From contig JBDKSB010000012.1 of NCBI GenBank assembly GCA_039683095.1, forward strand, positions 92,293-156,292: a stretch of DNA of 64,000 nucleotides, written 5' to 3'. Positions 1 through 47,625 of the stretch are shown piece after piece (within the stretch, counting starts at the first letter, position 1; each line of letters opens with the position of its first letter). The stretch is from Acidobacteriota bacterium. GTDB lineage: Bacteria; Acidobacteriota; Aminicenantia; Aminicenantales; Saccharicenantaceae. The notes beneath the pieces are model-generated. The model saw nothing but the letters and a program-made list of their open reading frames with translations, did not search any database and had not been told where the DNA came from. The position numbers and the translations under genes are program-made.

Positions 1-2976
1 GCCGCGCAAAAAGCAGACGGGCGGCGTCCCATAGGTGACGCAGCCGGTCTCCCCGACGCCCTCTAGCAGGCCCGTCTCGTCCTCGAACATGTAAAAATAC
101 TTTGCACCGCCCTGGCTCCCGTAGCCTCCCGGCCCCGGCTCCCCGTCGCCGCCGTGCCGGCCGGTCCCCCATCCATTTCCGCCGGACGCGCCGCAGCCGC
201 TGCCGCCGTTGCCCCCGGGCTGGGGGTGGTAGGTCAGCCGCTGGCGGGCGTCGACGACCCGGACGACAAGCTCGACCATGGCCCCGGCGCAGTCCTTGAG
301 GTCCTTGACCCGGAGGTCCGGCCGCTTGCCCTGATAGAGATCGAGGTCGTCCCCGTCCGGCAGGAAGCCGAGGGACTCGAAGAGCATGCGTCGCTTCTCG
401 TCCGAGGCGATGTCGGCCACCTCCTCCATGTGCTCGAGACCCCGGAAGTAGCGCAGGACCTGGCGCGTCCGCCGCGGCTCGAGCGAGTCGAAGACGCCGG
501 CCTTGATGAGCGTCAGGAGCTCGGCCTTGCCGGGCTTCGTCCGGGCCAGGACGTCCTCGATCGACAGGTACTCGCCGCCCGCCGCCCGCTCGTCGAGGAG
601 GCGCTCGATCGTCTTGAGGCCCAGTCCCTTGATCGAAGCCAGGCCGACGCGGATGGCGCCGTTCTCGACCTCGAAGCCGGCGGCGCTACGGTTGGCGTCG
701 GGCCCGAGGATGCGCAGGCCGTTCCGCTTGGCCTCGGCGACGTACTCCGCGAGCTCGTAGTAGCCGCCGCCGGCGTTGAGCACGGCCGCGAAATAGGCCG
801 CCGGCCGATGGACCTTGAGATAGACGGCCTGGTAGGCCATGGCGGCGTACGAGGCGCTGTGGGCCTTGTTGAAGGAGTAAGAGGAGAACTTCTCCATGGT
901 CTTCCACAGCCGCTCGACGTCAGGCGCGGCGTAGCCGCGCTCGCCGGCCTCGCGGGCGAACTTCGCCCGGAGCGCCGGGTCGCCGCCCCGCCGTTTCTTC
1001 AGGCTCCGCCGCAGCAGGTCGCCTTCCTCAGGGGGCAGGCCGGCCACCCGCTCGGCGATCTGCATGACCTGCTCCTCGTATAGAAGGATGCCGCCGGTCT
1101 CGGGCAGGATGCGGGCCAGGAAGGCGTCGTCGCCGGGCCAGGGCCCGTTCGGCGGGGACGCGGAGCCCTGGGGAGCACTCCCGGGTCTCGCGGCTCCCCG
1201 CCCGCCGCGCCGCCGCAGGAGAGCTTCCTTCATGCCGCTCTCGGTCGGCCCCGGCCGGACCAGGGCCAGGGCCTGGGTGATCTCGTGGATGTCCGCCGGC
1301 TTCATGCGCCGCAGCAGGTTCATCATGGCCGGGCTTTCGACCTGGAAACAGCCGACCGTCCGGGCCGCCCGCAGGGCCGCGTACGTCGCCGGGTCGTCCG
1401 GCGGCAGGCTCCCCAGCCGGAGCTTCTCCTTCGTCTCCGAGATGGCCGCCAGGCCCCGCACCGAGAGGAGATCGAGCTTGATAAGCCGCAGGTCCTCGAC
1501 CGCGTCCTTGTCGAAGTGGGTCATGCGCAGGCCCTTGGCCGAGGTTTCGAGGGGCAGGTAGCGCTCGACCGGCCCGGGGGTCAGGATGACGCCGCCGACG
1601 TGGAGCGAGATCTCGTGGTAGACGTCCTGGAGCTCCGCGGCCAGCTTCCAGGCCTCGAGCCGGCCCGGGGCCGGGGCGGCCAGCCGCAGGCTCGACGGCT
1701 CGGCGAAATACGGCACGCGCTTCGACTGGCTCCGGGCCTCCTCGGGCGGCGCGCCGAAGGCCCGGAGCGTCTCGTAGATGGCCGAGCGGCCCCCGAAATC
1801 CTTCAGCGAGCAGACGTAGGCCGCGCCGGTCCGGCCCGCGCCGTAGCGCTCGAGGACGTAGGCCAGGACCTCGTCGCGGCGCCGCGAGTCGAAGTCGATG
1901 TCGATATCGGGCGGATCGGGCCGGCCGCGGTTGAGGAAGCGCTCGAAATAGAGGTCGAACTCCAGGGGGTTGACGTGGGAGATGCCGAGGAGCCAGGCCA
2001 GGAAGGACGAGGCCCCCGAGCCCCGCAGGTTGTGGAGGATGCCGCGGCGGCGGGCGAACTCGACGATGTCGTGGACGACGAGGAAGTACGGCCCGAAGCC
2101 CGACTGCTCGACCGCCGCCAGCTCGCGCCGGGCCCGCTGGCGCTCCTTCCAGGTCAGGCTCGGCGCGGCGGCCAGCCGCTCCGTGACGGCCTGGCGCAGG
2201 GTCCGGGAAAAGAGATCGGCCGGCAGGCTGGGGACGACGTTCTCGAAGACGAACGAGCATTTCCCGGTGACCTCGAACGTCCGGGCCAGGGCCTCCTTGG
2301 CGGCCTCGCCGAAGCGGCGCGCGGCCAGGGCGTCCTGGTCCGGGCCGAAGAGACTGACCTGGCCCAGGAGCCGGTCGCGTTCCGGCGGGAACGGGACCTT
2401 GTCCTCGATGGCGTGGAGAAGGATGAGGCGCTCCGGGCTGGTCAGGTACTTGACCGGGTTGGCCCAGACGACGGGCAGATCGGCGAAAGGCGAAGGGAAA
2501 TGGGGGACGTGTCCCCCATTTTCCGGTCCCCCGTTCTCCAGGATCCGCTCGAAGTTCCCGAAGTCCGCCCCGATGTACAGATCGCCCGGGGCGAGTTTCT
2601 CGCGCAGGTCGGCCAGCATGGCGGCCTCGGCGTCCCCGTTCCCCGCGTCCCCCTCCGGGACGTAGATCGCGATGAGCCCCGACGCGTCGCGGACCTCCCG
2701 GCGGTTGAAGATCTCCATGAGGTTCGAGTAGCCCTCGCGCTCCTTGACCATGAAGACGAACCGCCGCCCCCCGATCTCGAGCTCGCAGCCGAAGACGGGC
2801 CTGAACCCGGCCGCCGGGGCGATGCGCTTCCACTTGCCCCAGCCGTAGATGTTGCCGATATCGGCAAGGGCCGCGGCCGCGAGCCGCTTGCCGCGGGCCC
2901 AGGCGGCCGCCTCCTCGAGCGTGACGCTGCCCTTCCCCCGGCTGTAGACCGAATGAAGGCGGAGCGGCGTGAACAT
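1..2976 (-). CDS. dnaE2: Error-prone DNA polymerase III alpha subunit DnaE2, partial; C-terminus lies beyond the window start
   Basis: Hand translation of minus strand from ATG at 2976 gives ~990 aa with no stop. PHP-like N-terminus (LRLHSVYS...GKGSV). Pol III alpha hallmark FNKAHSASYAAMAYQAVYLKVHRPAAYFAAVLN. RBS GAGAGGAG upstream. Missing from ORF track because it has no in-window stop. Confidence 0.85.
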   Translation of the reverse strand, partial: MFTPLRLHSVYSRGKGSVTLEEAAAWARGKRLAAAALADIGNIYGWGKWKRIAPAAGFRPVFGCELEIGGRRFVFMVKEREGYSNLMEIFNRREVRDASGLIAIYVPEGDAGNGDAEAAMLADLREKLAPGDLYIGADFGNFERILENGGPENGGHVPHFPSPFADLPVVWANPVKYLTSPERLILLHAIEDKVPFPPERDRLLGQVSLFGPDQDALAARRFGEAAKEALARTFEVTGKCSFVFENVVPSLPADLFSRTLRQAVTERLAAAPSLTWKERQRARRELAAVEQSGFGPYFLVVHDIVEFARRRGILHNLRGSGASSFLAWLLGISHVNPLEFDLYFERFLNRGRPDPPDIDIDFDSRRRDEVLAYVLERYGAGRTGAAYVCSLKDFGGRSAIYETLRAFGAPPEEARSQSKRVPYFAEPSSLRLAAPAPGRLEAWKLAAELQDVYHEISLHVGGVILTPGPVERYLPLETSAKGLRMTHFDKDAVEDLRLIKLDLLSVRGLAAISETKEKLRLGSLPPDDPATYAALRAARTVGCFQVESPAMMNLLRRMKPADIHEITQALALVRPGPTESGMKEALLRRRGGRGAARPGSAPQGSASPPNGPWPGDDAFLARILPETGGILLYEEQVMQIAERVAGLPPEEGDLLRRSLKKRRGGDPALRAKFAREAGERGYAAPDVERLWKTMEKFSSYSFNKAHSASYAAMAYQAVYLKVHRPAAYFAAVLNAGGGYYELAEYVAEAKRNGLRILGPDANRSAAGFEVENGAIRVGLASIKGLGLKTIERLLDERAAGGEYLSIEDVLARTKPGKAELLTLIKAGVFDSLEPRRTRQVLRYFRGLEHMEEVADIASDEKRRMLFESLGFLPDGDDLDLYQGKRPDLRVKDLKDCAGAMVELVVRVVDARQRLTYHPQPGGNGGSGCGASGGNGWGTGRHGGDGEPGPGGYGSQGGAKYFYMFEDETGLLEGVGETGCVTYGTPPVCFLRG

Positions 2977-2995
2977 GGCGCGTCCCCCGCTCCTC

Positions 2996-4258
2996 TCATT
3001 TCGTCAGCGACGCCGTCTTGAGGACGTAGCCCCGCCGCGGGTCGAAGGCGTAGACGCCGTCGAGCATCTTCTCCCGGGCCGTCAGCACCGCGCCGAAGCC
3101 GTACTTGTCGCGGACCTTGTCGATGGCCCCGCCCAGCCGCTCCGGCCGTTCCGAGTAGGGCTCGAAAAGGGCCAGGGGCCGGACGCGCACCAGGTCCGCG
3201 GCCTTGACCCCGACCAGGCGCAGGGCCAGCCGCGAGCCCTCGACGAGCTCGAGGAACAGCTCCTCGGCGACCTTGTAGATCTTGCCCATCTCCTGGAGCG
3301 GCGAGAGCATCAGGCGGCGCTTGATCTCGGTCTTGAAGTCGGCGTAGCGGGCCTTGACCTCGATGACGTGGGCGTAGAGCCGGTCCTCGCGCAGGGCCAG
3401 TGTCAGCCGGTCGCAAAGGTAGGCCAGGTGGGCCAGGAGCAGGCGGCGGTCCCAGAGGTCCTCGAGGAAGGTCGTCTCGCGCGAGACCGACTTGGGCAGG
3501 GTCGGCGCGACCAGGGGCCGGCTGTCGATGCCGCGCGACTGGAGGTAGATGTCGTCGCCGGCCTCGCCGAAGAGCGTGTGCAGGGTCCCCCGCGGCAGCT
3601 CCCAGAGCTGGCCGATCGTGTGGACGCTCATCAGCCGCAGGACGACCTGGGCCTTGGGGCCGATGCCGGGCAGGGCCTCGATGCCGAGGTCGCGGAGGTA
3701 GTCCCGCTCCTCGCCTTCGCGGATCTCGAAGAAGCCGGCCGGCTTGGCCCGGCGGGTGGCCAGCTTGGCCAGGATCTTGTTCGGCGCCGCCCCGGCCGAG
3801 ACCGTGACCCCGATCTCGCCCTCGACCCGCCGCTTGAGCTCGCGGGCCGCGTCCACGAACGAGGGGTAGATGTGGCCGCAGCGGGCGAGGTCCAGGTAGG
3901 CCTCGTCGAGCGAGGCCTCCTCGACGTCCGGGGTGGCGGCGTGGAGGACGCGGAAGAAGCGCTCGGAGAAGGCTTGGTAGACCTGGTAGTTGCCGCGGAG
4001 GAAGACGCCCTCGGGGCAGAGCTTATAGCATTCGCGGAGGGGCATGCCGGAGTGGACGCCGAACTTGCGGGCCTCGTAGGAGCAGGTCGAGGCCACGCCC
4101 CGTTCGTGGGCCAGGCCGCCGACGATGACCGGCTTGCCCGCGAGCGAGGGGTCGAGCAGGACCTCGACGGAGGCGAAAAAGGCGTCGATGTCGACGTGGA
4201 CGATGTAGCGCCGCGGCCGTTCTTTCGACAAAGACACCTCTGCTTCCCTTTCTCGCAC
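2996..4258 (-). CDS. dinB: Y-family DNA polymerase (DinB/Pol IV-like) with catalytic acidic residues intact
   Basis: N-terminal VDIDAFFASVE and SLDEAYLD motifs, identical to the catalytic D, D and E motifs of Pol IV. 420 aa. Lies immediately between lexA and dnaE2. Confidence 0.85.
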   Translation of the reverse strand: MREREAEVSLSKERPRRYIVHVDIDAFFASVEVLLDPSLAGKPVIVGGLAHERGVASTCSYEARKFGVHSGMPLRECYKLCPEGVFLRGNYQVYQAFSERFFRVLHAATPDVEEASLDEAYLDLARCGHIYPSFVDAARELKRRVEGEIGVTVSAGAAPNKILAKLATRRAKPAGFFEIREGEERDYLRDLGIEALPGIGPKAQVVLRLMSVHTIGQLWELPRGTLHTLFGEAGDDIYLQSRGIDSRPLVAPTLPKSVSRETTFLEDLWDRRLLLAHLAYLCDRLTLALREDRLYAHVIEVKARYADFKTEIKRRLMLSPLQEMGKIYKVAEELFLELVEGSRLALRLVGVKAADLVRVRPLALFEPYSERPERLGGAIDKVRDKYGFGAVLTAREKMLDGVYAFDPRRGYVLKTASLTK

Positions 4259-4275
4259 GGTCCGATTCCCTTTTT

Positions 4276-4319
4276 CTCCCCTTCCGCGAAGGGGAGCGTG
4301 ATCTCGGGGGTCTCCCCCG
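4276..4319. other. Two adjacent GC-rich palindromes between lexA and dinB (CTCCCCTTCCGCGAAGGGGAG and CGGGGGTCTCCCCCG)
   Basis: Perfect inverted repeats read directly in the lexA-dinB intergenic region. Could be an attenuator/terminator or a protein-binding site. Confidence 0.3.
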
Positions 4320-4320
4320 T

Positions 4321-4947
4321 TCAGTACTTTCTCATGACGCCGATGACCCGGCCCAGGATCCTGGCCGAGGGCGCCTCGATCGGCTGGAAGGCCGGGTTCT
4401 CCGGGACGAGGAAGACCCGGCCGTCGGCCCGGCGCAGGCGTTTGAGCGTGACCGAGCCGTCGTCGAGCATGGCCACGACCATCTCGCCCGAGTTGGCCAT
4501 GTTGGTCCGCTCGAGCAGGACGTGGTCGCCGTCGTCGATGTAGGCGTCGATCATGCTCTTGCCGTCGACCCGGATGCAGAAGACGTTGCCCCGGCGGCGG
4601 CCGACCATCCAGCCCGGCACGTCCATGGCCTCGCCGGTCGTGTCGAACGACTCGCGCGGCCCGCCGGCGGGGACGAGCCCGGCCACCGGCACCCGGACCT
4701 GGCTCTCGACCAGGGCCGGGAGGCCCTTCACCCGGATCTCGCCGTCCTCGCGGCTGATGTAGCCCTTGCGCTCCAGGCTCTGGAGGTGCTTGAGGACGGC
4801 CGAGGGGCTGGGGATCTTCAGGGCCGCCCCCAGCTGGCGGATGGTCGGGGCGTAGCCGTGCCCGAGGACGAACTCCTCGACGGCCTCGAGGACCTTGGCC
4901 TGCCGGACGGTCAGCTCGCGTCTCAGCGTGTTTACCATTTTGTTCAC
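4321..4947 (-). CDS. lexA: LexA repressor (S24 peptidase family)
   Basis: Winged-helix N-terminus, cleavage-site region VAGLVPAGGP, and Ser/Lys dyad region GDHVLLER...KRL. 208 aa. Confidence 0.9.
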   Translation of the reverse strand: MNKMVNTLRRELTVRQAKVLEAVEEFVLGHGYAPTIRQLGAALKIPSPSAVLKHLQSLERKGYISREDGEIRVKGLPALVESQVRVPVAGLVPAGGPRESFDTTGEAMDVPGWMVGRRRGNVFCIRVDGKSMIDAYIDDGDHVLLERTNMANSGEMVVAMLDDGSVTLKRLRRADGRVFLVPENPAFQPIEAPSARILGRVIGVMRKY

Positions 4948-5020
4948 CTTTTAAAAAATAAGCCTGCCGCGGGCGTTTGTCAAGAGGAAATCGAACGAAA
5001 GGGAAAGAATGCCCCGGGAT

Positions 5021-5948
5021 CAGTCAAGCGTCCATTGTAGCGAAAAGGCCAGGACCTCAGGGAAGCCGCTGGGCTTCTCCCGGACGCAATAGAGGCGGTC
5101 GTTCTTGATAATGACGTCCCGCAGGGGTGGCCCGAGCTGGAGCCTCTGATAGCCCAGGGCTGTTCTGAGGACGCGAACGCCGCCCGGCGAGAACATGTCG
5201 CAGACGCCGGCGCCTGTCGCCTGGTTTTGCCCGTATCCGACGGCACAGAGCCGGTCATGATCGTCTGCCAGGAGGGCCAGGAACGGCGGGAATGTTCTTG
5301 GGAAGGCGAGGTTCCTCCAGAACGGGTGGTCCGGGGGGAGCGAATGGAGGCCTCACGGAATCCGTGAGGGACGTCGATCGCCGGATAGTCCGCCAGGATC
5401 TTGCGGATCAGGCGGCCGCTCAAGTCATAGACTTCGATCTCGCGACTCGAGGCCATGGACGTCAAGAAAAAGGAGGTTCGCGAAACCGCGACCAGGGGAA
5501 AATCGATGAAGGGGGTCTTGAGCTCGTCCTCGGCCGGAACGGGATACGCCTTCAGCTCTCGCCGCCTGGAAAAATCCGGACCGAACAGGCCGACGCCGTA
5601 TGAGGAAAATTCGAGAGTCTCCGGTTTCACCCGCACATAGGCAATGACATAATCCCCGTTGGCGAGCGGCAGGAAGCCGTGCGGAAAGGGAAAAAGGAGG
5701 TCCGGCAGGGCGACCGCGCGAACCACCGTCCCCTCCGCATTGAAGAACAGGACCTTCCGGCCGCCCAGGCTGACCACAGGGATCTCTCCCCCGGCATTCA
5801 GCCGCATGAACCGGGGATTCTGCACCTCTCCGGGCCCCTGGCCGATAGGGCAAAATGAGCGCACGGACCGGCCGCGGTCGTCGAACACGAAAACGGTATT
5901 CCCCGGCGTCGCGCCGCGCCGGGTGGTGTTCGCCGGCCCGCTGGGCAT
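5021..5948 (-). pseudogene. Six-bladed beta-propeller (NHL/TolB-like) gene with frameshift in a G6 homopolymer tract; N-terminus and signal peptide absent
   Basis: ORF 4980..5948 reads as credible propeller sequence for ~215 aa then turns to junk. Shifting +1 at the GGGGGG run (5333-5338) restores a credible C-terminus: ...NLAFPRTFPPFLALLADDHDRLCAVGYGQNQATGAGVCDMFSPGGVRVLRTALGYQRLQLGPPLRDVIIKNDRLYCVREKPSGFPEVLAFSLQWTLD, stopping at 5021. Confidence 0.6.
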
Positions 5949-6198
5949 CCACGGCCTGACGGTCGTCGTGGATCATGGCCTGGGGTTGTTCAGTATGTAT
6001 TGTCATTTGAGCCGGATCGATGTCGCGTTGTCCCAGGGCGTGACGCGGGGCGAAACGCTCGGGCTTTCGGGGTCCACGGGCCTGGCCGGCGGCGACCATC
6101 TCCATTTCGCCATGCTCGTCCACGGGACGTTCGTCAATCCCGTGGAATGGTGGGATGCCCACTGGATCCGCGACAACGTCGAGCTCAAGACGAGATGA
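5917..6198 (+). pseudogene. 3' remnant of an M23 (LytM-type) peptidase gene, only the C-terminal ~95 aa
   Basis: VVFAGPLGIHGLTVVVDHGLGLFSMYCHLSRIDVALSQGVTRGETLGLSGSTGLAGGDHLHFAMLVHGTFVNPVEWW matches the M23 C-terminal core including the HxH zinc motif. Upstream in-frame sequence is junk. Overlaps the propeller fragment on the opposite strand. Confidence 0.6.
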
Positions 6199-6279
6199 TG
6201 CGGCCATGACCGAACCGGGACCCGTCGGCGTCTTTGATTCGTGATCTGGCGGCCTGAACGTTTTCCGGGAAATCACGGC

Positions 6280-6394
6280 CTTGACTTCTCCGCCGGCTAT
6301 CGGCTACATTCCGGCCATCGCTAATCCCCGCCACAGGAGAGCAGAGAGCCCTGGACATCAAGGATGTCATCGACATCCGCTTATCCATCCGGGC
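6280..6394 (+). repeat. Direct repeat copy 1 (~115 bp): degenerate copy of the nitroreductase promoter plus 5' coding region, start codon mutated to CTG
   Basis: cttgacttctccgccggctatcggctacattcc...aatccccgccacaggag...ggacatcaagga(t/c)gtcatc...atccatccgggc is shared with 7923-8038 at roughly 85% identity. Confidence 0.8.
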
Positions 6395-6592
6395 TGAGCG
6401 GAGAAAGGAAGACGATCTCGTCGAAACGCCGCGTGATCTGGTTCACGAGGCGATGCTGTTCGGCCACGTCAACGACGGCGTCGCCGGCGTCGATGCCGGC
6501 TCTCAGATCACCTGCCTGGGCCAGGGCGCCGAGAGGATGAGGCCGCAGGTTGCATGAAGGCTAGCCAAAGAAACGGAGTGAGGGTTACTAAA

Positions 6593-7627
6593 ATGAATAA
6601 GAACCTCTGCTTGGCTATTTTCGGGATCCTGATAAGTGCTTCCATTTATGATGCCGCCATAGCACAAGAGATCAGCAGCCAGGAAATAAACTTTGAATAT
6701 TTATGGAACACATTCGATAAAAAGTATGCTCTATTTGTCCCCAAGAGAGTTGACTGGGATGCGTTGTACAGGATTTATCGGCCAAAGATATCCTCTCAGA
6801 CTTCAGAAACTGAACTCTTTGACATTATGGCCGCCTTGCTTAGCCACTTGAATGACAATCACGTCCGGTTAGAGTCTCCAAATCGTTCTTTCCGGTCGGG
6901 CGTTTTGGGTGCGATGCCACCGATGGATGATTTCTTTCCTCTCATCAAAACCAAATATCTTCATGGGTACAAAGATCGTGCTGCTGGCATGTTTTCCGGT
7001 TGGTTAACAGATTCCATCGGTTATTTTCATATCCAGTATTTTGAGAACGTGGAACAGAGCTCCGATGTCATCGACCAAATTCTTTATGAGTTTAAGGATG
7101 CAAAAGGAATTGTTATCGATGTTCGCGAAAACTACGGAGGCGACGACGAGGTCGGCAAGACAATCGCCGATCGTTTCGCCGACAAAAAGCGTTTGTATAT
7201 GCTGAAGCGTTGCAAGAATGGCAATGGGCATAATGACTTTGGCCCGCCTCAAAAATGGTATGTGGAACCGGAAGGACCTATTCAATACACCAAGCCTGTG
7301 ATCCTTCTCATCAATCGTTTCTCTGTCAGTGAAGCCGAGGTTTTCACTTTGGCCATGCGCGCATTGCCTCAGGTTACGGTTATTGGGGATGCGACTTCAG
7401 GTGTTTTTGCTGATGTTGATAAGGATATTCTTCCTAACGGCTGGACATTTAGGTGTCCATATAACCTTATTGAAGACGCCGCGGGCTTTTGTTGGGAAGG
7501 AATAGGGATTCCGGCAGATCTTCATCAAACGATTTCACAAGAAGATATTGCCGGCGGACATGAGAGGGTTCTTGACCTGGCAATAGCATTTTTAAACGCA
7601 AATAAACGCGCCGCGATTCGAAAATAA
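6593..7627 (+). CDS. S41-family C-terminal processing peptidase with signal peptide; low-GC, horizontally acquired
   Basis: Signal peptide [25 protein letters not shown]. Motifs [13 protein letters not shown] and [17 protein letters not shown]...VIGDATSG match the S41 catalytic region. GC about 40% against ~70% flanks. Alternative start at 6554. Confidence 0.8.
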
Positions 7628-7896
7628 TGACATTGCAGCCGATGCTGCGGGAACATCACGGATATGTCCGATCCTACGACGCGGTACGGCGGCATGTCCG
7701 GACGCGCTTTCCGGAGTTTTGCCGGAAGGGGGCTCAGCAGATGACCCCGGTGGCCGGCGCGATCGCGCGTCGGGCCCAGCCGTTGCCGATCGCTCCGAAG
7801 CTCAAGTTCCTCTTCGTGGCGCCGCCCGCGGTGGCCGGCTCGTTCGGGCTCGCTTGGCTGCTCACCCATGTCCCCGGGATCAAACGCGTCCTCTGA
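7627..7896 (+). CDS. Hypothetical small protein (89 aa), high-GC, inside the inserted segment
   Basis: ORF with native-like codon usage between the S41 gene and repeat copy 2. No recognisable family. Could be a gene remnant. Confidence 0.2.
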
Positions 7897-7922
7897 TCCT
7901 CGGGCCGCAACGAAACCGACAT

Positions 7923-8038
7923 CTTGACTTCTCCGCCGGCTATCGGCTACATTCCGACTGTTCGCCAATCCCCGCCACAGGAGACGAGAAGACCATGGAC
8001 ATCAAGGACGTCATCTACACCCGCCGATCCATCCGGGC
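7923..8038 (+). repeat. Direct repeat copy 2: functional promoter and first ~15 codons of the nitroreductase gene
   Basis: See copy 1. Contains TTGACT, an 18-bp spacer and TACATT, followed by ATG at 7995. Confidence 0.8.
7924..7953 (+). promoter_or_regulatory. Sigma70-like promoter (TTGACT, 18-bp spacer, TACATT) for the nitroreductase gene
   Basis: Read directly from sequence. About 40 bp upstream of ATG at 7995. Duplicated in degenerate form at 6281. Confidence 0.5.
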
Positions 8039-8561
8039 CTATGAGAGCAAGCCCGTCGACCGCGGCCTGATCCAGCAGGTGATCGAGGCCGCCGTGCAGG
8101 CGCCGTGCGGCATGGGCATCGAGCCCTGGAAGTTCGCCGTCATCCAGGACCGCGGGATCCTGGCCGACCTGTCCGGCCGGACGAAAGCCCACATGCTCGG
8201 CCTGATCGACCAGGTGCCGCCGCTCGCGAGGTACCGGGAGACGTTCGAGAGCCCTGAGTTCAACGTCCTCTACGGCGCGCCCGTGCTGGTCCTCATCTGC
8301 CGTTCGACGCAGAATCCAAGCCCGACGGCCGACATCGACTGCGCCCTGGCCGCCGAGAACCTGATGCTCGCGGCCCGCAGCCTCGGTCTCGGCACGTGCT
8401 GGATGGGCTTCGTGGGAACATACCTCAAGACCGACGAGGCCAAGAAGCGTTTCGGCATCCCGGAGGACCACCAGGTCGTGGCGGCGATCGCCGCCGGCTA
8501 TCCGGCCGTCGAGTTCACGACCAAGGCCAGGAATCCCCCGGCGATGATCTTCTGGAAATAG
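7995..8561 (+). CDS. Nitroreductase family protein
   Basis: [21 protein letters not shown]...WKFAVIQD matches the nitroreductase N-terminal signature. 188 aa. Confidence 0.8.
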
Positions 8562-8816
8562 CCGCCGATGGCACGGACCGGTGCCAAGACCGGTGTTGAC
8601 ATCTATCCGCGTCCGGACGGGAAACGCCGAATGCGGCCCGGAATTGTGCCCGGCCCTCGAAAAGGCGCAATCCGTCTGGGACGGCGTTCCGAAAATCGCC
8701 GAGACCCTGTCGCGCGCCGACTTCGAAGCCTACGCTCAGCCCTACTGCGGCCGCCGCCTCCGCCTCGCGGCGAAGCAAGCCGCCCGACCCTGACCGGAGA
8801 TTCCGGGGCCGGCCGC

Positions 8817-10004
8817 TTATTCGGTCAGGGCGCCGGAATATTTCAAGACCCTTCGATTCGGAGGGGCGTAGAAGGTTCCGGGATTGGACGTATAAACGGC
8901 GCCTTCAAAAACCCCTTCGTTGCCGCCGGCGAATTTATGGGGCTCGGCCGCGCCCTTGGGGACCAGGACAAGCTGTCGCTTGAAGTCGCGGCGGTAGGAA
9001 CGCTGGTCGTCGCCGATCTTGAAGTAAAAAGCGTTCCGCAGGATGAACGGCTTCCATTCGGCGCAGACGGCCGTTTCCGGAACGCATCGGACGGGCTTGT
9101 CGGCGGCGAAGGCCGCCTGCAGCTCGAGGCCGCTGAGAGGGACGCCGTCGAGCTCTCCGATCGTTCCGTATTGGGCGTCGGCCAGGACCCATTTATGGAA
9201 TTGCTCCAGCCAGACCTCGACGGCGGAATGGGCCTCGCTCCGTGTTTCCACGTCCCGGGGGAGCAGGTTGAGCACCCGCGCGGGCATCCCGTAGGCCTTG
9301 GCGACTCCGGCCAGGACGACGGCGTAGTCCCGGCAGATGAAACGGCCGCCTGCCTTGGCCTCCCGGAGGATCGTCAGCGGGTCGGTTTTCGAGGCTGTCT
9401 GGTCCGAGCTGTGTTCCCACCGCGTGCTGACCCATGCCGTCAGGCGGCGCAGTCTCTCGTAATCGTCCTTGGAACCGGCGATGACCGCGTCGATCGAGAA
9501 TTCCTTCCGCATCGCCGCGAATTCCGGGGTCTCCGGACCGTCGAACGTCAGATCGAACGGCGGTGGCGTCTGAGTTTCGTCCCAGGCCAGCGGACGGGGG
9601 CCGAATCGGGATTTCAGGTCGGCGAGGAAGGCCTTGAATTCCGGATCCGCGCGCAGGGAATCCAGATCGGAATCCGCGGCATACTTATCGTAATCCGTGT
9701 ATCCGGCTCCGACGGCCTCGCGGGCGGCCGCGATGGCGCGCGATTTCTCACCGGAGAGCGCAAGGACGCAGGCTTTATTGTAAAGGATGCCGGCCTTGAT
9801 CAGAGGGTCCCCGGCGCTCGCCGCGAGACCCATCTGACGTTCCAGGACGTTAAGGGCCCCGCTCCAGTTCCCCGCTTTGACGCATCGGGCCAGCTCTTCG
9901 TTCGTGGACCGGAACTGGTCCTCCAGGGACGCCTGCCCGGCGGCGGCCAGGCAGAGGCAGGCGGACATCAGGCCAACTGCGATCATTTTTTCGACGAGGC
10001 GCAT
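8817..10004 (-). CDS. Secreted transglutaminase-like cysteine protease superfamily protein
   Basis: Signal peptide. GRFICRDYAVVLAGVAKAYGMPARVL matches the transglutaminase-core Cys motif, with downstream His (EAHSAVEVW) and Asp. Confidence 0.65.
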   Translation of the reverse strand: MRLVEKMIAVGLMSACLCLAAAGQASLEDQFRSTNEELARCVKAGNWSGALNVLERQMGLAASAGDPLIKAGILYNKACVLALSGEKSRAIAAAREAVGAGYTDYDKYAADSDLDSLRADPEFKAFLADLKSRFGPRPLAWDETQTPPPFDLTFDGPETPEFAAMRKEFSIDAVIAGSKDDYERLRRLTAWVSTRWEHSSDQTASKTDPLTILREAKAGGRFICRDYAVVLAGVAKAYGMPARVLNLLPRDVETRSEAHSAVEVWLEQFHKWVLADAQYGTIGELDGVPLSGLELQAAFAADKPVRCVPETAVCAEWKPFILRNAFYFKIGDDQRSYRRDFKRQLVLVPKGAAEPHKFAGGNEGVFEGAVYTSNPGTFYAPPNRRVLKYSGALTE

Positions 10005-10624: not shown

Positions 10625-10667
10625 GACCCCCGGAGAGTCCGGGGTCGCAAACATACGACTCCACAAA

Positions 10668-10699
10668 GGGAGCGGCCATCCGGCCGCTCCCTTTTTTTA
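10668..10699 (+). terminator. Rho-independent terminator (GGGAGCGGCC...GGCCGCTCCC followed by T7)
   Basis: 10-bp perfect stem followed by TTTTTTT, immediately after the RRM gene. Confidence 0.8.
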
Positions 10700-10736
10700 T
10701 TCTTCTCCCGATTTAGGGATATTTTCGAGCCGGGAA

Positions 10737-10797
10737 AATGGGGACGTTTCCATTTTTTCCGGATCGGGGTTTTGGGAAAAACAGAAACGTCCCCATT
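10737..10797. other. Long hairpin (14-bp perfect stem AATGGGGACGTTTC / GAAACGTCCCCATT, ~33-nt loop with internal TTTTTCC/GGAAAAA pairing)
   Basis: Read directly. Located in the convergent gap between the RRM gene and icd. On the minus strand it sits just 3' of icd, so it is probably the icd terminator or a structured element. Confidence 0.4.
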
Positions 10798-10835
10798 ATC
10801 CCCCGACGGCAGACGTCCGGCGAAAACGCCGTGTC

Positions 10836-13067
10836 TTAGAGCGCGTCGATGATCGCGTTCAACGCCGCGCACGGCCGCATGGCCGCCGCGAGCTTTTCTT
10901 GGTCCGGGTGGTAGTAGCCGCCCATGTCGACAGGCTTGCCCTGGACCGCGATCAGGCCGGCGTCGATCTCGGCCGCCTTCTCTCCCAGGGCCCTGGCCAC
11001 CGGCGCGAACCGGGCCCTGAGCTCCTGGTCCTTGTCCTGGGCGGCCAGGGCCTCGGCCCAGTAGAGGGCCAGGTAGAAGTGGCTGCCCCGGTTGTCGATC
11101 TGGCCGACCTTGCGGGCCGGCGACTTGCCGTTGTCCAGGAACTTGCCGATGGCCGCGTCGAGGGCCTCGGCCAGGACCTTGGCCTTGTCGTTCTTGAACG
11201 CGCCGGCCAGGTACTCGAGCGAGGCGGCAAAGGCCGAGAACTCCCCGAGCGAGTCCCAGCGCAGGTAATTCTCCTTCTTGAACTGCTGGACGTGCTTCGG
11301 CGCCGAGCCGCCAGCGCCCGTCTCGAAAAGCCCGCCGCTGGCCAGCAGGGGCACGATCGACAGCATGTAGGCGCTGGCGCCGATCTCGAGGATCGGGAAG
11401 AGATCGGTCAGGTAGTCGCGCAGGACGTTCCCGGTGACCGAGATGGTGTCCTGGCCCTTGCGGATGCGCTCGAGGGAGTACTTCATGGCCTCGACAGGCG
11501 GCATGATCTTGATCGTCAGCCCCGTCGTATCGTGGCCCTTGAGATACTCCTCGACCTTGGCGATGACCTGGACGTCGTGGGCCCGGCCGCGGTCCAGCCA
11601 GAAGACCGCCGGGGCGCCGGTCGCCCTGGCCCTTTTGACCGCCAGCCCGACCCAGTCCCGGATCGGGATGTCCTTGGCCCGGGACAGGCGCCAGACGTCG
11701 CCGGCTTCGACCGCGTGCTCCATGAGGACCCGGCCGCCGGCGGCGACCACCCGGACCGTGCCGTCGAAGGGGATCTCGAAGGTCGTCGGGTGGGAGCCGT
11801 ATTCCTCGGCCTGTTGCGCCATCAGCCCGACGTTCGGGACGCTGCCCATGGAGGCCCGGTCGAAAGCGCCGTGCTGCCGGCAGTCCTCGATGATCGTCTT
11901 GTAGATCGTCGAGTAGCAGCGGTCCGGGATCATGGCCTTGGTCTCATGGAGCTTCCCGTCCGGGCCCCACATCCGCCCCGACTCGCGGACGACGACCGGC
12001 ATGGAGGCGTCGACGATGACGTCGCTCGGGACGTGCAGGTTGGTGATCCCGTGGTCGGAATCGACCATGGCCAGCGGGGGCCGCGCGGCATAGACGGCCT
12101 TGATGTCGGCCTCGATCTCGGCCTGCTTGGCCTCGGGCAGGGCCTTGATCTTGGCGTAGAGGTCGCCGAGGCCGTTGTTGGGATTGAAGCCGCACTCCCT
12201 GAGCGCAGCGGCGTGCTTGGTCAGGGCCGGCTCGAAGAAGACCGAAACGGCGTGGCCGAAGAGGATGGGATCGGAAACCTTCATCATGGTCGCCTTGAGG
12301 TGGAGCGACAGCAGCAGGCCCCCGGCCCTGGCGTCCTCGATCTGGGAGGCGTAGAAGGCCCGCAGGGCTTTCTTGCTCATGAAGGTCCCGGACAGGATCT
12401 CGCCGTCGAGCGCGGTCAGTTCGTCCTTGAGGACCTTGACCCCGCCGTCACGGCCCTGGATCTCGATCCGGAAACCGACGCCCTGGCCCACGGTCACGGA
12501 CTTCTCGTTGCCGTAGAAGTCGCCGCCGGTCATGTGGGCGACGTGGGCCTTGGACTCCTGGGTCCAGGGGCCGAGGGGGAGCATCTTCGCGGGGTTCTTC
12601 TGGGCATACTTTTTGACCGAAACGGGGGCCCTCCGGTCGGAGTTCCCCTGGCGCAGGACCGGGTTGACGGCGCTGCCCAGGACCTTGGCGTAGCGGGCCT
12701 GGATCTCCTTCTCAGCCTCGGTCTTGGGGATCTCGGGATAGTCGGGAACCTTGTAGCCCTGCGACTGGAGCTCGGCGACGGCCTCCAGCAACTGGGGCAG
12801 CGAAGCGCTGATGTTCGGCAGCTTGATGATGTTGGCCTCGGGCTTCAGGGCCAGCTCGCCCAGGAAGGCCAGGTTGTCGGGCAGGCGCTGGGCCTCGGTC
12901 AGGCAGTCGGGGAAGTTGGCGATGATGCGGCCGGCGAGCGAGATGTCGCTCTTTTCGACCTCGATCCCCGTCCCCTTGGTGAATCCCCGGATGATCGGAA
13001 AAAGCGAATAGGTGGCCAGGTACGGCGCTTCGTCGGTTTCCGTCCAGTAGATCTTGCGGGCGGTCAT
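10836..13067 (-). CDS. icd: Monomeric NADP-dependent isocitrate dehydrogenase
   Basis: 743 aa. Characteristic monomeric-IDH sequence throughout. Confidence 0.9.
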
Positions 13068-13348: not shown

Positions 13349-14692
13349 TTGATGAAAGGGAGGTGCAAGATCCGATCCCCAAAGCGGAAATGGAGCTTGT
13401 CCGCGGGCGCGGCCGCCGGCTTGGCCGCGGCGCTCGTCCTCCTGTCGTTCCAGGCCGCAACTGCCCAGGACATCGTCCGTCACGGCGAGAAGCTAAGCCT
13501 GGACCGGTGCGTCCAGATCGCCCTGGAGCGCCTGCCCGCGATCCTGGCCGCCCGGGCCGCGGCCGAAGTGGATCGCAACGTCGTTCGCGAGGCCGAGTCG
13601 GCCTTTTATCCCCAGGTCGGCTGGTCCGCCTCGATCGGCCGGGCCTCGGTCGGGCCCAGGACCTCGCTCGGCATCCAGACGGACGCGGTGACCTATAATT
13701 CCTATTCGACGGGCCTCACGCTCAGCCAGAACATCTACGATTTCGGGAGGACCTCGGGCCAGGTGCGCATCGACAAGCTGAGCTACAGCGCCGCGCTCGC
13801 GGACGTCGAGACCGCTTCCCAGCAGGCCGTCTTCGACGTCAAGCAGAGCTTCTACGGGGTCCTCCAGGCCGAGCGGAACAGGGACGTCGCGGAGGAGGCG
13901 GTCAGGCAATACGAGCTCCGCCTCGAGCAGGCCCGGGGCCTCTTCGAGGTCGGGCTGCAGCCGAAATACGACGTCACCAAGGCCTCCGTGGATCTCGGGA
14001 ACGCCAGGGTCAGCCTGATCAATGCCCGGAACGCCGTCCGGCTGGCCCTGGCGGCGCTGAACGGCGCCATGGGCCTCACCGGCCATATCGATTACGGCGT
14101 CGAGGGCGATCTCGCCTTCGCGGCCTACGGCCTGACCCTCGAGGAGGCGCTGGCCCAGGCCTACAAGAACAGGCCCGACCTGGCCGCCCTGGCCACCCGG
14201 CGCGAGGCAGCCGAGAAGGCCGTCGCCCGGGTCCGGGCGGGGTTCTTCCCGGCCCTGAGCGGCGCGGCGTCCTACGATTACTCCGGCAACGCCTTTCCGC
14301 TCTCGCGCGGCTGGAGCCTGTCCCTGAACCTGGGGCTCTCGCTCTTCAGCGGCTTCCAGACGAAGGCCCAGGTCGACGAGGCCCGGGCGAACATCGAGGT
14401 CCTCCGGGCCGGCGAGGAGGCCGGGCGCCAAGCCGTCTATCTGGCGGTCCAGAAGGCCTATCTCGATCTCAAGCAGGCCGAGGAGGTGGTCCCCGTGGCC
14501 GAGCTCAACGTGACCGCCGCACAGGAGAACTACGATATCGCCAGCGGAAGCTACAAGGAGGGCGTCGGAGACCCGATCCAGGTCGCCGACGCGAGCGCCG
14601 CGCTGATCAGCGCGAAAACCGCCTATATCCAGGCCCTTGCCGACTGCAAGGTTTACCGCGCCAGCCTCGAGCTGGCCATGGGGCTGAGATGA
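13349..14692 (+). CDS. Outer membrane efflux protein (TolC-like OMF)
   Basis: Signal peptide. Two-repeat OEP architecture. First gene of the efflux operon. Confidence 0.8.
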   Translation: MMKGRCKIRSPKRKWSLSAGAAAGLAAALVLLSFQAATAQDIVRHGEKLSLDRCVQIALERLPAILAARAAAEVDRNVVREAESAFYPQVGWSASIGRASVGPRTSLGIQTDAVTYNSYSTGLTLSQNIYDFGRTSGQVRIDKLSYSAALADVETASQQAVFDVKQSFYGVLQAERNRDVAEEAVRQYELRLEQARGLFEVGLQPKYDVTKASVDLGNARVSLINARNAVRLALAALNGAMGLTGHIDYGVEGDLAFAAYGLTLEEALAQAYKNRPDLAALATRREAAEKAVARVRAGFFPALSGAASYDYSGNAFPLSRGWSLSLNLGLSLFSGFQTKAQVDEARANIEVLRAGEEAGRQAVYLAVQKAYLDLKQAEEVVPVAELNVTAAQENYDIASGSYKEGVGDPIQVADASAALISAKTAYIQALADCKVYRASLELAMGLR

Positions 14693-15843
14693 ACAAACAA
14701 GCTTCAAGGATGACGATCGCCGGGGCCCTGGTTCTGGCGGCCGCCTGGTCCGCCGCCTGCAAGGGCAACGGGGAGAAGCTGGTGACGGAGAACGTCACGC
14801 GCGGCGACATCACCACCGCCGTCACGGCGGCGGGGACGGTCAACGCCGTCACCAGCGTCAATGTCGGGACCCAGGTCTCGGGCCGGGTCACGACGCTCTT
14901 CGCGGACTTCAACTCCCCGGTCACGAAGGGGCAGGTCATCGCCCTGATCGACCCGTCCCTTTTCCAGGCCCAGGTCGACCAGGCCCGGGCGAACCTGGCC
15001 AACGCCAGGGCCAACCTCGAAAAAGCGCAGGCCACGGAAACCGACGCCAGGCGCACCTGGGACCGCTATAAGAACCTCTTCGGGCGCGACCTGGCGGCCA
15101 GGAGCCAGATGGACGCGGCGGAAACGGCCTACCTGACGGCCCATGCCTCGACCCTGGCCGCCCAGACCCAGGTCGACCAGACCTCGGCCGCCCTCCGGCT
15201 GGCCGGGACGAACCTCTACTACACGAAGATCCTCTCCCCGGTCGACGGCGTCGTCATCTCCCGGAGCGTCGATGTCGGCCAGACCGTAGCGGCGAGCTTC
15301 CAGACCCCGACCCTCTTCGTCATCGCCGCGGACCTGACCAAGATGCAGATCGACACGACGGTGGACGAGGCCGACATCAGCACGGTCAAGGTCGGCCAGG
15401 ACGTCGAGTTCGCCGTCGACGCCTATCCCGACGAAACGTTCAAGGGCTGGGTCTTCCAGGTCCGCAACGCCGCCGTCACGGTCCAGAACGTCGTCACCTA
15501 CGACGTCGTCGTGACGGTCGACAACCGGGACCTGAAGCTCAAGCCAGGCATGACCGCCGACGTCTCGATCATCACGTCGCGGGCCAAGAACGTCCTGCGG
15601 GTTCCCAACACCGCGCTGAGGTTCAAGCCCGCGGCCAAGGGCCAGGCGGCGGCCGCCGCCGCCCGGGGTTCGGCGGTCTGGGTCGAGGAGAACGGCCAGC
15701 CCAAGCGCGTGCCGGTCAGGATCGGGTCGAGCGACGGGACGTTCACCGAGCTCGTCGCCGGCGATCTCAAGGAGGGCCAGCCCGTGATCACCGGATCGGC
15801 GGCCAAGACGAGCCAGGCGACTCCGGGTTTCAGGATGTTCTGA
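14689..15843 (+). CDS. macA: Efflux periplasmic adaptor (HlyD/MacA family membrane fusion protein)
   Basis: Lipoyl, beta-barrel and coiled-coil features. 4-bp overlap with the upstream gene. Confidence 0.8.
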   Translation: MNKQASRMTIAGALVLAAAWSAACKGNGEKLVTENVTRGDITTAVTAAGTVNAVTSVNVGTQVSGRVTTLFADFNSPVTKGQVIALIDPSLFQAQVDQARANLANARANLEKAQATETDARRTWDRYKNLFGRDLAARSQMDAAETAYLTAHASTLAAQTQVDQTSAALRLAGTNLYYTKILSPVDGVVISRSVDVGQTVAASFQTPTLFVIAADLTKMQIDTTVDEADISTVKVGQDVEFAVDAYPDETFKGWVFQVRNAAVTVQNVVTYDVVVTVDNRDLKLKPGMTADVSIITSRAKNVLRVPNTALRFKPAAKGQAAAAAARGSAVWVEENGQPKRVPVRIGSSDGTFTELVAGDLKEGQPVITGSAAKTSQATPGFRMF

Positions 15844-15844
15844 G

Positions 15845-17808
<1,964 letters not shown>

Positions 17809-37259: not shown

Positions 37260-37576
37260 CTCTGTTCGCTCCAAATCAGTTGCTTTGTACCCCAGCTAAA
37301 ATTCTGTGTCAACAAAAAACTTGACAATTATATAAATATAAATATAAAGAACCTGACACAGAAACAGCACCAACCATGTTTGTGCAATTTAGGTTGAACA
37401 AACGTTTTCCTAGACCTGAAACTTCAAAAATCCTGCGTTATATAAGATTACCTCATCCTTATTATTCGAAAGGAGGTGAGACCGTACCGAAGTCTGGTGA
37501 TTGGGGAAAAAGTGCGATCTTAAGGGAGATAGGTTAGGACATCCAAAAGGACAAAAAAGGAAGTGGGAGAAGAACG
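37260..37576. promoter_or_regulatory. 317-bp AT-rich divergent control region between the sugar ABC operon and the TonB-dependent receptor
   Basis: GC drops sharply. Contains TTGACAATTATATAAATATAAATATAAAG (TTGACA plus TATAAAT-like -10s), the repeat TGTGTCAACAAAAAACTTGACAA, and a GGAGGTGAG RBS-like element. Confidence 0.5.
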
Positions 37577-47544: not shown

Positions 47545-47625
47545 AAAGTAATACTTATATACTATATTGATATTGATGCGTCAACTATTGTGATGATCGA
47601 TCCATCCTGCCTGTTCGCGCAGCGG

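Follow-up and report, generated by a model that had tools for sequence, protein, structure and literature searches.

A foreign S41 peptidase gene among recombined gene fragments of an Aminicenantes genome: a likely integron-type cassette stranded outside any integron

An integron gene cassette consists of a promoterless open reading frame plus an attC site (PMC4889954), and secondary-site integration of cassettes is discussed in the same work (Cury et al. 2016). Cassettes inserted outside att sites are expressed when they lie near resident promoters (Loot et al., bioRxiv 10.1101/2022.09.11.507474). The S41 peptidase gene considered here lies in a stretch of 64,000 nucleotides ("the window") of an Aminicenantes MAG and resembles an integron cassette in several respects. 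It is a single ORF with a short 5'UTR and a ribosome binding site (RBS), without a promoter of its own; its clade occurs elsewhere in attC-separated arrays beside tyrosine recombinases (contigs L093, L094 and L086); and homology among all its contexts starts at a G|TTRRRY core, with the window copy apparently starting at the same point. Unlike an integron cassette, it has neither attC, integrase nor array in the window, its core is mutated to ATGAGGC, and it sits between fragments of ordinary chromosomal genes. The likeness to secondary-site (attG) insertions is that the cassette is located outside attI, in a host gene, fixed and downstream of a potential resident promoter, whereas the hybrid site of such insertions (attC retained, G|WT target) and the right-hand part of the target are missing, and the promoter appears to be a duplicated copy brought near by deletion rather than merely a resident one. 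To our knowledge no IntI has been reported from this lineage, an uncultured phylum without known integrons. We favour the reading, with a probability of about 0.55, that the S41 gene is a horizontally acquired integron-type cassette stranded outside any integron, that the direct repeats around it came about by recombination, and that the first promoter copy probably drives it.

The foreign low-GC module spans 1.1 kb of the forward strand (6540..7648), its limits being those of DNA homology to other S41 genes. It comprises a 53-nt 5'UTR with an RBS, conserved with the homologues, the coding sequence (6593-7627, forward strand; 344 aa) and about 21 nt of 3' sequence. The protein carries a signal peptide and the domains Tricorn_C1 (Pfam, 3.1e-10) and Peptidase_S41 (1.1e-23), so that the catalytic domain of family S41 is present; a PDZ domain is absent in the Pfam profile search. 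A role as a defence gene was considered and rejected, as there was no PADLOC match. The first-pass annotation had placed the start at 6554, but the ATG at 6593 is the likely one, as it yields the signal peptide and agrees with the start of the homologues.

The GC content of the ORF is 44.7% (island ~45%) compared with 66.1% in the window and ~66% in the host genome, and GC at third codon positions is 0.46 against 0.79-0.97 in the adjacent genes. The region forms the deepest GC dip of the whole 64 kb, and the drop covers the part that is homologous at the DNA level to other S41 genes, from 6540 to about 7648. The gene is missing from all ~50 related Aminicenantes loci compared. The earlier description of a gene-sized foreign insertion is thereby upheld, as is the GC contrast, although not the figures given for it (~40% against ~70%). 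Against its homologues the gene has a dN/dS of about 0.11, and substitutions specific to the window copy run from AT to GC in 37 cases and from GC to AT in 11. Judged from these comparisons the gene is foreign, evolves under purifying selection and is drifting toward the high GC content of its host.

Eight distinct genomic contexts of the S41 clade were retrieved. Comparison of six of them by DNA shows similarity only across the gene, from about -55 to +12..20, and in seven contexts the homology starts at GTTAGGC (L003, L006, L090 and L093) or a near variant (GTTAGGT in L094, GTTCGGC in L087). L086 has ATTAGAT at the homologous boundary position, and its own R' (GTTATAC) about 25 nt upstream. 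In the contigs where the gene stands in arrays beside tyrosine recombinases, attC-like hairpins follow it. In L093 at least 11 ORFs of one orientation, the S41 gene among them, come after an integrase fragment that lies on the opposite strand, and the repeats between the ORFs start with GCCTAAC-CAGGCGCT and end with AGCGCCGGTCC-GTTAGGC. In L094 the gene is located between the sites GCCTAAC...GTTAGGT and GCCTAAC...GTTATGC, with 7/7 L-box pairing. In L086 four cassettes follow a recombinase whose best NCBIfam match is the integron integrase; each cassette opens with six bases that match the R'' box of the site downstream of it, and the three sites fold as hairpins (z -2.6 to -5.9). This recombinase (301 aa) scores 247 bits with TIGR02249, below the cut-off of 265 and in two separate stretches, passes NF040815 (231 > 220), and is without the insertion specific to IntI that follows the GKGxKDR region.

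Sites of the attC type were sought with a crude home-made R/L-box scan, not with IntegronFinder. Its strict form missed most true sites because within an array each R' is part of the following cassette, whereas the relaxed form works on L086 and L094 with a high background and misses the long (170-400 nt) sites of L093. A search for flanking repeats of the "promoter plus gene start" kind around the S41 gene in the other contexts found none, and brought up attC-like repeats instead. On the strength of these contexts, the S41 clade is taken to be an integron-type gene cassette with attC-like sites, residing in low-GC genomes.

In the window, homology to a PAS-kinase gene stops at 6539 and homology to the S41 genes begins at 6540, inside the motif ATGAGGC (6537..6543, forward strand). 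This motif aligns with the G|TTRRRY boundary immediately after the PAS fragment, and we interpret it as a relic of the 5' boundary seen in the other S41 cassettes as G|TTAGGC (GTTCGGC in L087). The joint can be placed as GGA|TGAGGC or as GGATG|AGGC, which is one to two bases off G|TTAGGC, the preceding base being A, not G. The foreign DNA would accordingly begin at the canonical 5' boundary of a cassette, abutting a native PAS-kinase fragment.

The other side of the module is different. The 96 nt of high-GC sequence behind it (7649..7744, forward strand) are recognisable neither as an attC nor as part of an IS element, and a protein-database search, whose query also carried residues of another frame at its front, found no homologue sharing enough words with them. 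As a candidate for a decayed attC the segment was rejected: it forms no hairpin (z -0.29), the R/L-box scan does not rise beyond chance, and there is no significant similarity to the attCs of the S41 cassettes (alignment z 1.5 or less, local scores at the level of shuffles). The right joint of a secondary-site insertion, attC-G plus WT of the same target gene, is likewise absent, the 96 nt being followed by a fragment of an acyltransferase gene and not by the PAS kinase. Because no recognisable attC follows the S41 gene in the window, an integrase-mediated step is not demonstrable. The attC-like scan of the 64 kb gave 12 matches against 8.9 in shuffles, tblastn with the L086 recombinase found no match in the window or in 90 loci, and neither an integron integrase nor an attC cluster was found in the window or the related Aminicenantes loci. 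Transposase domains (Pfam/NCBIfam) and inverted repeats flanking the block are absent as well; profile, tblastn and attC-like scans thus agree with the earlier remark that no integrase, attC or IS element is visible in the window.

The repeats that bracket the module are two versions of the start of the nitroreductase gene, one belonging to an intact gene and one cut off after codon 15. Copy 2 (7923..8038, forward strand) holds the functional nitroreductase promoter, the 5'UTR and the first 15 codons of an intact gene (7995..8561, forward strand; 188 aa; Pfam Nitroreductase 8.7e-32), which is conserved in relatives with 61-88% amino acid identity among orthologues in Aminicenantes MAGs. Copy 1 (6281..6395, forward strand) has the same promoter, 5'UTR, RBS and 15 codons, with the start codon changed to CTG at 6351 (ATG at 7995 in copy 2) and 14 homologous codons after it. 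Both carry the promoter hexamers TTGACT-18 nt-TACATT (in copy 1 TTGACT at 6281-6286 and TACATT at 6305-6310), and no other promoter-like site lies on either strand between 5800 and 8700.

The copies differ at 17 of 117 aligned columns (about 86% identity). An exact core of 34 nt, CTTGACTTCTCCGCCGGCTATCGGCTACATTCCG, occurs twice in the window (6280-6313 and 7923-7956) and never in shuffles; it is identical at 34/34 positions, while the other 83 columns hold all 17 differences (P=0.0017), and zero changes in the core of copy 1 have a probability of 0.01-0.04 at that copy's own rate. Promoter cores of relatives differ from the window core at 3-6 positions. A derived deletion of 1 nt in the core is common to both copies, and neither has a closer relative than the other copy (86.4% compared with at most 84.9% to any relative), a combination that import from another lineage explains no better than does duplication within the genome or gene conversion. 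The first-pass annotation had recognised a diverged duplicate of the nitroreductase promoter and first codons whose first copy lacks its ATG, and the alignment bears this out. An extension of the repeat past 6395 into nitroreductase codons 16 onwards was rejected: there is no similarity, and the PAS-kinase fragment is found there instead.

Besides the S41 module, the space between the repeats contains two high-GC stretches (6396-6539 and 7649-7922), so that the insert is a mosaic of a PAS-kinase 5' fragment, the S41 cassette, the 96 nt of other high-GC sequence and an acyltransferase 3' end. The first fragment (6396..6539, forward strand) comes from the N-terminal PAS region of a sensor kinase gene and continues the reading frame of nitroreductase codon 15, to which it is fused; the fusion frame (6351-6557) is decayed and has no ATG at its head. 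The fragment matches L009 (13918-14012; blastn 82%, E 4e-21) and L008, where the ORF at 13638-16136 encodes a PAS protein; it was also aligned at the protein level, and a search of the protein database brought up no closer homologue sharing enough words with it. The last fragment (7745..7922, forward strand) consists of the final ~50 codons of an Acyl_transf_3 gene (stop 7894-7896) and its 3' flank. Homology to this gene begins at 7745 in four relatives. It is the native upstream neighbour of the nitroreductase gene in some relatives, being contiguous with it in L014, L045, L070 and L043, and the full-length copy in L014 (8716-9903) matches Pfam Acyl_transf_3.

Upstream of copy 1 the M23 peptidase gene, previously listed as a whole gene, is represented only by its last 287 nt or ~95 codons (5912..6198, forward strand; Pfam Peptidase_M23 profile positions 22-96 only, NCBIfam Pgp6 positions 354-442 of 452). 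The fragment is 91-93% identical to many relatives, and a full-length gene (432 aa) exists in L014 (7461-8759). The spacer from the M23 stop codon to promoter copy 1 (6199..6280, forward strand) is homologous at its start to the short M23-to-promoter spacer of L013. M23 tail, short spacer and copy 1 are colinear with the arrangement of L013 and L047, and in these and in L048 the M23 and nitroreductase genes stand adjacent without the insert, which answers the question of synteny raised earlier. The context of copy 2, with the acyltransferase tail upstream, is colinear with the other arrangement, e.g., that of L014. The in-frame fusion of copy 1 to the kinase and the two allelic contexts point to recombination scars rather than a target-site duplication; "target duplication" was one of the terms used in the first-pass annotation for what is a 115-nt gene piece.

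Other known modes of insertion resemble the locus in part. Homology-facilitated illegitimate recombination, or Campbell-type single-crossover integration, is said to have been described in 2002 by de Vries and Wackernagel and by Prudhomme and coworkers. Much as in that process, the foreign DNA seems to have a homologous stretch on one side and a non-homologous joint on the other, with the anchor partly duplicated; in the window, anchor and joint are deduced from comparison with relatives, and microhomology at 7744/7745 could amount to 3 nt at most. With four or more novel joints in the window, a single event would not suffice. Direct repeats flanking a foreign gene are a feature shared with genomic islands and IS elements with target-site duplication, but the repeats here are 115 nt of promoter and coding sequence, 14% diverged and with different upstream contexts, and terminal inverted repeats, transposase, integrase and a tRNA target are missing from the window.

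We infer the following order of events. The cassette would have entered the PAS-kinase gene of an Aminicenantes genome, either via an integrase at a non-att site or by illegitimate joining. A deletion would then have fused nitroreductase codon 15 to kinase codon ~13, so that the cassette, which lacks a promoter, came to lie about 280 nt downstream of that of the nitroreductase gene. Homology-anchored recombination may subsequently have set the block before a second, intact allele of the locus, with one end in the M23/promoter homology and an illegitimate joint in the acyltransferase gene (7744/7745) as the other; the same recombination would have created the direct repeat.

A history in which an integron integrase inserted the cassette at a non-att site (attC x attG or a secondary site) inside the PAS-kinase gene, attC and the remaining kinase being deleted later and the repeat being an unrelated scar, is conceivable, and we regard it as doubtful. 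The left junction lies within 0-2 nt of the canonical cassette boundary, chance placement within +/-3 nt is unlikely, and the phenomenon is established experimentally, with expression of inserted cassettes near promoters (bioRxiv 10.1101/2022.09.11.507474). Against it, the junction reads A|TGAGGC instead of G|TTAGGC, neither attC nor kinase sequence lies to the right of the cassette, and no integrase was seen in the window or related loci. Another history would begin with an in-genome duplication, tandem or segmental, of the nitroreductase 5' region; copy 1 would then have decayed, and the S41 gene would have come to lie between the copies through plain illegitimate recombination, without any integron machinery. 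It is essentially the old duplication or recombination scar of the first-pass annotation, and agrees with the mutual closeness of the copies, their common derived 1-nt deletion and further partial duplications at the locus in L012, L013 and L015. We consider it unlikely, since each copy has upstream of it the sequence of a different allelic arrangement, private changes are about equal (roughly 8 and 6) and amount to species-level divergence, and the apparent start of the foreign DNA exactly at a cassette boundary is left unaccounted for.

Delivery by an IS element or transposon, with 7649-7744 as the remnant of an IS21-family transposase gene, is very improbable. A frame at 7630 (15 residues) does resemble the motif HGYTGSYDAVKRMLR of IstA, which sits at the corresponding place in that protein (residues 93-116), but the motif spans only 24 residues, E-values are 9 against plasmids (tblastn) and 0.09 locally, Pfam/NCBIfam give 0 matches at E<=10 and no protein homologue was found, and inverted repeats and a short target-site duplication are absent; given a resemblance without significance, the segment was rejected as an IS21 remnant. 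Least probable of all, and by our estimate negligible, is an assembly artefact, i.e., sequences of different strains or organisms wrongly joined at the 34-nt repeat, in which case either the S41 block is a separate molecule or the true locus is M23-spacer-promoter-nitroreductase without insert. The Logan contig L085 (run SRR15035648, 3 samples) matches window 6284-7952 without a single mismatch, and the contigs L001 and L002 have their first base at window 7927, so that assemblies at k=31 break only within the 34-nt core. Since k=31 contigs end in this core, the graph at that k would also permit an empty site plus a 1.64-kb circle. However, the joints at 6395/6396, 6539/6540, ~7648 and 7744/7745 all lie inside one independent contig from 3 samples, ordinary reads span a 34-nt repeat, the S41 copy carries the host-directed AT>GC drift, and the high-GC fragments within the block are Aminicenantes sequences.

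Under the favoured reading of a stranded cassette, the intact promoter core of copy 1 suggests that this putative promoter now drives the S41 gene. No promoter-like site other than copy 1 lies upstream of the gene, and there is none between 6311 and 6593, which is in keeping with the earlier proposal that a degenerate duplicated promoter drives it. Transcription would probably run from copy 1 through the dead fusion frame into the S41 gene, which with its own RBS and signal peptide would yield a predicted secreted or periplasmic protease. The transcript may continue into the nitroreductase gene, as no plus-strand terminator lies within 5800-8700. That the locus is a natural case of the recently described cassette insertion at ordinary genomic sites, in which a deletion and partial duplication recruited a host-promoter copy as the cassette's own expression platform and selection has since preserved its core, is a tentative thought to which we give little weight.

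No new insertion mechanism is seen at this locus. The first-pass annotation had proposed an undescribed one, together with the capture of an orphan cassette; its intuition of a cassette was sound, but the S41 clade is an integron-type cassette elsewhere and hence a known kind of mobile unit, the foreign segment apparently starts at a cassette boundary, and cassette insertion outside att sites is already described. A gene-sized foreign island without visible mobility genes can thus be assigned to the pool of integron cassettes when its boundaries are compared across metagenomes, and the S41 locus is a candidate field example of cassettes that spread beyond integrons and reached a high-GC candidate phylum. 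Should the recruitment of a promoter copy considered above prove general, cassettes stranded behind duplicated host promoters would be a recognisable sign that cassettes have spread past the lineages that bear integrons.

The stretch from lexA to the nitroreductase gene is, to judge from the loci compared, a hypervariable recombination scrapyard throughout an entire clade of Aminicenantes. Its variable part starts at about 4990 beside lexA, and its left portion in the window is a six-bladed beta-propeller pseudogene on the reverse strand (4980..5911), frameshifted and 5'-truncated, with a weak partial Pfam DUF5128 match and the C-terminal half out of frame; it is 94% identical to L012 1-937. 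Partial duplications at this locus likewise occur in relatives: dinB-lexA is present twice in L013 and icd twice in L015, and L012 carries a 140-nt M23 tail twice, 5.1 kb apart.

The low GC content that the first-pass annotation reported for the S41 peptidase gene is borne out: its ORF has 44.7% GC against 66.1% for the window, its GC3 is 0.46 compared with 0.79-0.97 in neighbouring genes, and it forms the deepest GC dip of the window. Other, milder dips are found at 36500-38000 and 47000-48000 (0.53-0.56 per kb). Translation probably starts at the ATG at 6593, which we favour because this start yields a signal peptide (25 residues) and agrees with the start of the homologues. With an intact reading frame, an RBS, a signal peptide and a dN/dS of approximately 0.11, the gene looks functional. 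Its composition has started to shift towards that of the host, with 37 AT>GC versus 11 GC>AT private changes, although its GC3 is still far from the host value; it is a resident of some standing, but not an ancient one.

The closest S41 proteins (74-89% identity) derive from eight different genomic neighbourhoods. Where GC was measured for both gene and flanks (six loci), the S41 gene has 38.5-44.7% GC and lies below its surroundings. The metagenome contigs L093 (40%) and L094 (36%) have low-GC surroundings, and the S41 ORF of L093 has 37% GC. DNA similarity among six compared contexts is confined to the gene, from approximately 55 nt upstream of the start codon to 12-20 nt past the stop. It begins with GTTAGGC in L003, L006, L090 and L093, with GTTAGGT in L094 and with GTTCGGC in L087, a motif that corresponds to the GTTRRRY core of integron recombination sites. 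The exception is L086, where the homologous position reads ATTAGAT and the R' of the locus itself (GTTATAC) lies approximately 25 nt upstream. In L094 two sites flank the S41 gene; both have R'' GCCTAAC and L boxes that pair completely, and their R' boxes are GTTAGGT and GTTATGC, respectively. In L093 the gene is placed among at least 11 co-oriented ORFs beside an integrase fragment on the other strand, and the inter-ORF repeats start with GCCTAAC-CAGGCGCT and end with AGCGCCGGTCC-GTTAGGC. L086 carries a tyrosine recombinase followed by four cassettes, each of which opens with six bases complementary to the R'' box in its own downstream site (TTAGCC/GGCTAAC, TTAGGC/GCCTAAC, TTATAC/GTATAAC and TTAGCT/AGCTAAC), the signature of cassette circularisation. 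Its three full sites fold end to end into imperfect hairpins (z -2.6, -2.9 and -5.9). The recombinase (4974-5879, 301 aa, oriented in the cassette direction) has an integron integrase as its best NCBIfam match, with 247 bits just under the cut-off of 265. We conclude that the S41 clade is an integron-type gene cassette, with the two reservations that the attC sites were recognised by hand and that the IntI-specific insertion is missing from the recombinase of L086. The earlier intuition of an "orphan cassette" is apt.

The L093 array (1305-9166) has approximately 165-560 nt between called ORFs and sites of approximately 170-400 nt, longer than typical attC, and its inter-cassette repeats combine canonical GCCTAAC...GTTAGGC ends with conserved internal hairpins; its S41 copy is a pseudogene with an in-frame stop. 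On the L003 contig (59% GC), palindromic repeats of the form TCAAAAC-AAGTCAA...TTGACTT-GTTTTGA at 9733-9784, 11945-12079 and 13562-13649 lie between small genes around S41 and may represent another attC-like family.

In the window, S41 homology begins at 6540, within ATGAGGC (6537-6543), which aligns to GTTAGGC of the other cassettes, and homology to a sensor kinase stops at 6539. The left joint thus falls within 0-2 nt of the cassette boundary, which would rarely result from a random break. On the right side, S41 homology ends approximately 21 nt past the stop codon. No attC is demonstrable there: we observed neither a hairpin, nor an R- or L-box match above background, nor similarity to the attCs of the sister cassettes. 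An integrase is found neither in the window nor in the related loci.

The S41 module (6540 to approximately 7648) is part of a mosaic, which apart from its first member is on the plus strand. A truncated and frameshifted beta-propeller pseudogene (4980-5911, minus strand) is followed by the last third of an M23 gene (5912-6198), a spacer whose beginning matches that of the related locus L013 (6199-6280), repeat copy 1 (6281-6395) and, in the same reading frame as copy 1, a piece of the sensor kinase's N-terminal PAS region (6396-6539). To the right of the module, a segment at 7649-7744 precedes the end of an acyltransferase gene (7745-7922, comprising the last ~50 codons plus the 3' flank), joined to copy 2 exactly as in relatives of type I (see below). 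In the closest relatives, L008 and L009, the sensor kinase gene is located approximately 3.7 kb downstream of the nitroreductase gene, after an RNA-binding-protein gene. The window has no PAS sensor kinase at that place (10625-10836, compared with 13638-16136 in L008, and L009), and the displaced 5' fragment at 6396-6539 is the only part that survives. In an L008-like locus, a simple deletion running from codon 16 of the nitroreductase gene to codon ~12 of the kinase gene would yield this joint of copy 1 and kinase. L085, a Logan contig assembled independently at k=31 from the public run SRR15035648 and seen in three samples, matches window 6284-7952 with 0 mismatches, and the contigs L001 and L002 start at 7927. 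This shows the internal joints to be real and places the breaks in short-read graphs solely within the 34-nt core of the repeats.

Two repeats with a promoter in each and the low-GC gene between them are present as the first-pass annotation described. Copy 1 and copy 2 (7923-8038) have 17 differences across 117 aligned columns. TTGACT-18 nt-TACATT is present in both, and these are the only promoter-like sites in 5800-8700 on either strand; the same scan detected no plus-strand terminator-like site between them. Copy 2 runs on into an intact nitroreductase of 188 aa (Pfam 8.7e-32), while in copy 1 the ATG is indeed replaced by CTG (6351), with 14 more homologous codons retained. A palindrome, GCCGGCTATCGGC, inside the -35/-10 spacer of each promoter copy (6292-6304 and 7935-7947) is kept in most relatives and could be an operator.

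The nearest relative of each copy is the other copy (86.4% identity versus at most 84.9% to any orthologue), and both carry the same derived deletion of 1 nt in the core (CGGCT-ACATT), where every relative has CGGCTAGCATT or CGGCTAACATT. When the 17 differences are polarised with the relatives, approximately 8 are private to copy 1 (the ATG>CTG change, three altered codons and RBS-proximal bases) and approximately 6 to copy 2, the latter all within the 5'UTR; the split of the copies is therefore about as deep as that of this genome from its nearest sampled relatives. The core, CTTGACTTCTCCGCCGGCTATCGGCTACATTCCG, has no third site in the 64 kb with up to 3 mismatches allowed, and zero occurrences in shuffled sequence. 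It is identical at 34 of 34 positions, compared with 17 differences in the other 83 columns (hypergeometric P=0.0017). The rate of change of copy 1 itself predicts 3-4.5 changes in its core (probability of zero changes 0.01-0.04), and the cores of relatives differ from it at 3-6 positions. The intact core of copy 1 reflects either selection for a working promoter or homogenisation by conversion or crossover, of which we favour selection, because the cassette has no promoter of its own and copy 1 is the sole promoter-like site upstream of it.

Orthologues of the nitroreductase (61-88% aa identity) belong to Candidatus Aminicenantes MAGs, and the S41 gene is present in 0 of approximately 50 related loci. 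Everything from approximately 4990, upstream of lexA, to 7922 is variable among the relatives, and in all arrangements the divergence sets in just upstream of the -35 hexamer. In L016, L017, L049, L064 and L065 lexA directly adjoins the nitroreductase promoter; in L013, L047 and L048 (type II) an M23 peptidase gene and a short spacer precede it, the insert-free synteny that had been proposed as a check; in L014, L045, L070 and L043 (type I) an Acyl_transf_3 gene is directly upstream. Full-length M23 and acyltransferase genes are both present in L014, and L008 (7349-9900) and L016 (7800-9900) have other lower-GC genes at this position. Comparison of window 4990-7922 with L008-L017 and L042-L070 shows this stretch to be a hotspot of gene-content variation across an Aminicenantes clade. 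Copy 1 and the sequence to its left are arranged as in type II, copy 2 and the sequence to its left as in type I.

At the level of sequence, these comparisons establish a foreign cassette origin of the S41 gene, a cassette-boundary joint against a native kinase fragment, a nitroreductase start fused in frame to the kinase, an acyltransferase tail joined at 7745, two copies in two allelic contexts, and the absence of mobility genes. The cassette may have entered the kinase gene by an integrase acting at a non-att site or by illegitimate joining. The former action has been demonstrated experimentally for IntI1 (bioRxiv 10.1101/2022.09.11.507474), and non-att-site integration has been proposed for orphan attC sites (PMC4889954). 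A deletion would then have put the cassette under the nitroreductase promoter, and homology-anchored recombination would have set the block upstream of an intact allele, leaving the direct repeat. The main alternative for this last step is a duplication within the genome followed by decay, which is supported by comparable partial duplications in the relatives L012, L013 and L015; the locus is evidently prone to such events. In L012 the M23 3' end forms a 140-nt direct repeat (1300-1439 and 6397-6536, 96% identical) bracketing 5.1 kb. The long-read MAGs L013 (1-4325, at a contig end) and L015 (14556-18971) have diverged tandem duplications of dinB-lexA and of the isocitrate dehydrogenase gene, respectively, which may be real or strain-collapse artefacts.

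The arrangement would behave like a cassette that lacks its own promoter and draws its expression from a captured host promoter. The gene belongs to a cassette family of integrons, but the window locus itself did not test as an integron, nor as a CALIN, a canonical secondary-site insertion or a transposon. It is a stranded cassette in a field of recombination scars and does not represent a new way of inserting genes; the suggested "undescribed mechanism" is without support. The same applies to the "target duplication", as the repeat is the start of the nitroreductase gene and its copies stand in two allelic contexts.

Two further structures were observed downstream. The convergent genes for the RNA-binding protein and isocitrate dehydrogenase are separated by a 29-nt inverted repeat at 10732-10802 (13-nt loop, 86% complementarity), probably a terminator for both directions, and five tandem units at 21899-22344 (spacing 87-99 nt, 60-72% identical) probably belong to a gene for a repeat-domain protein.
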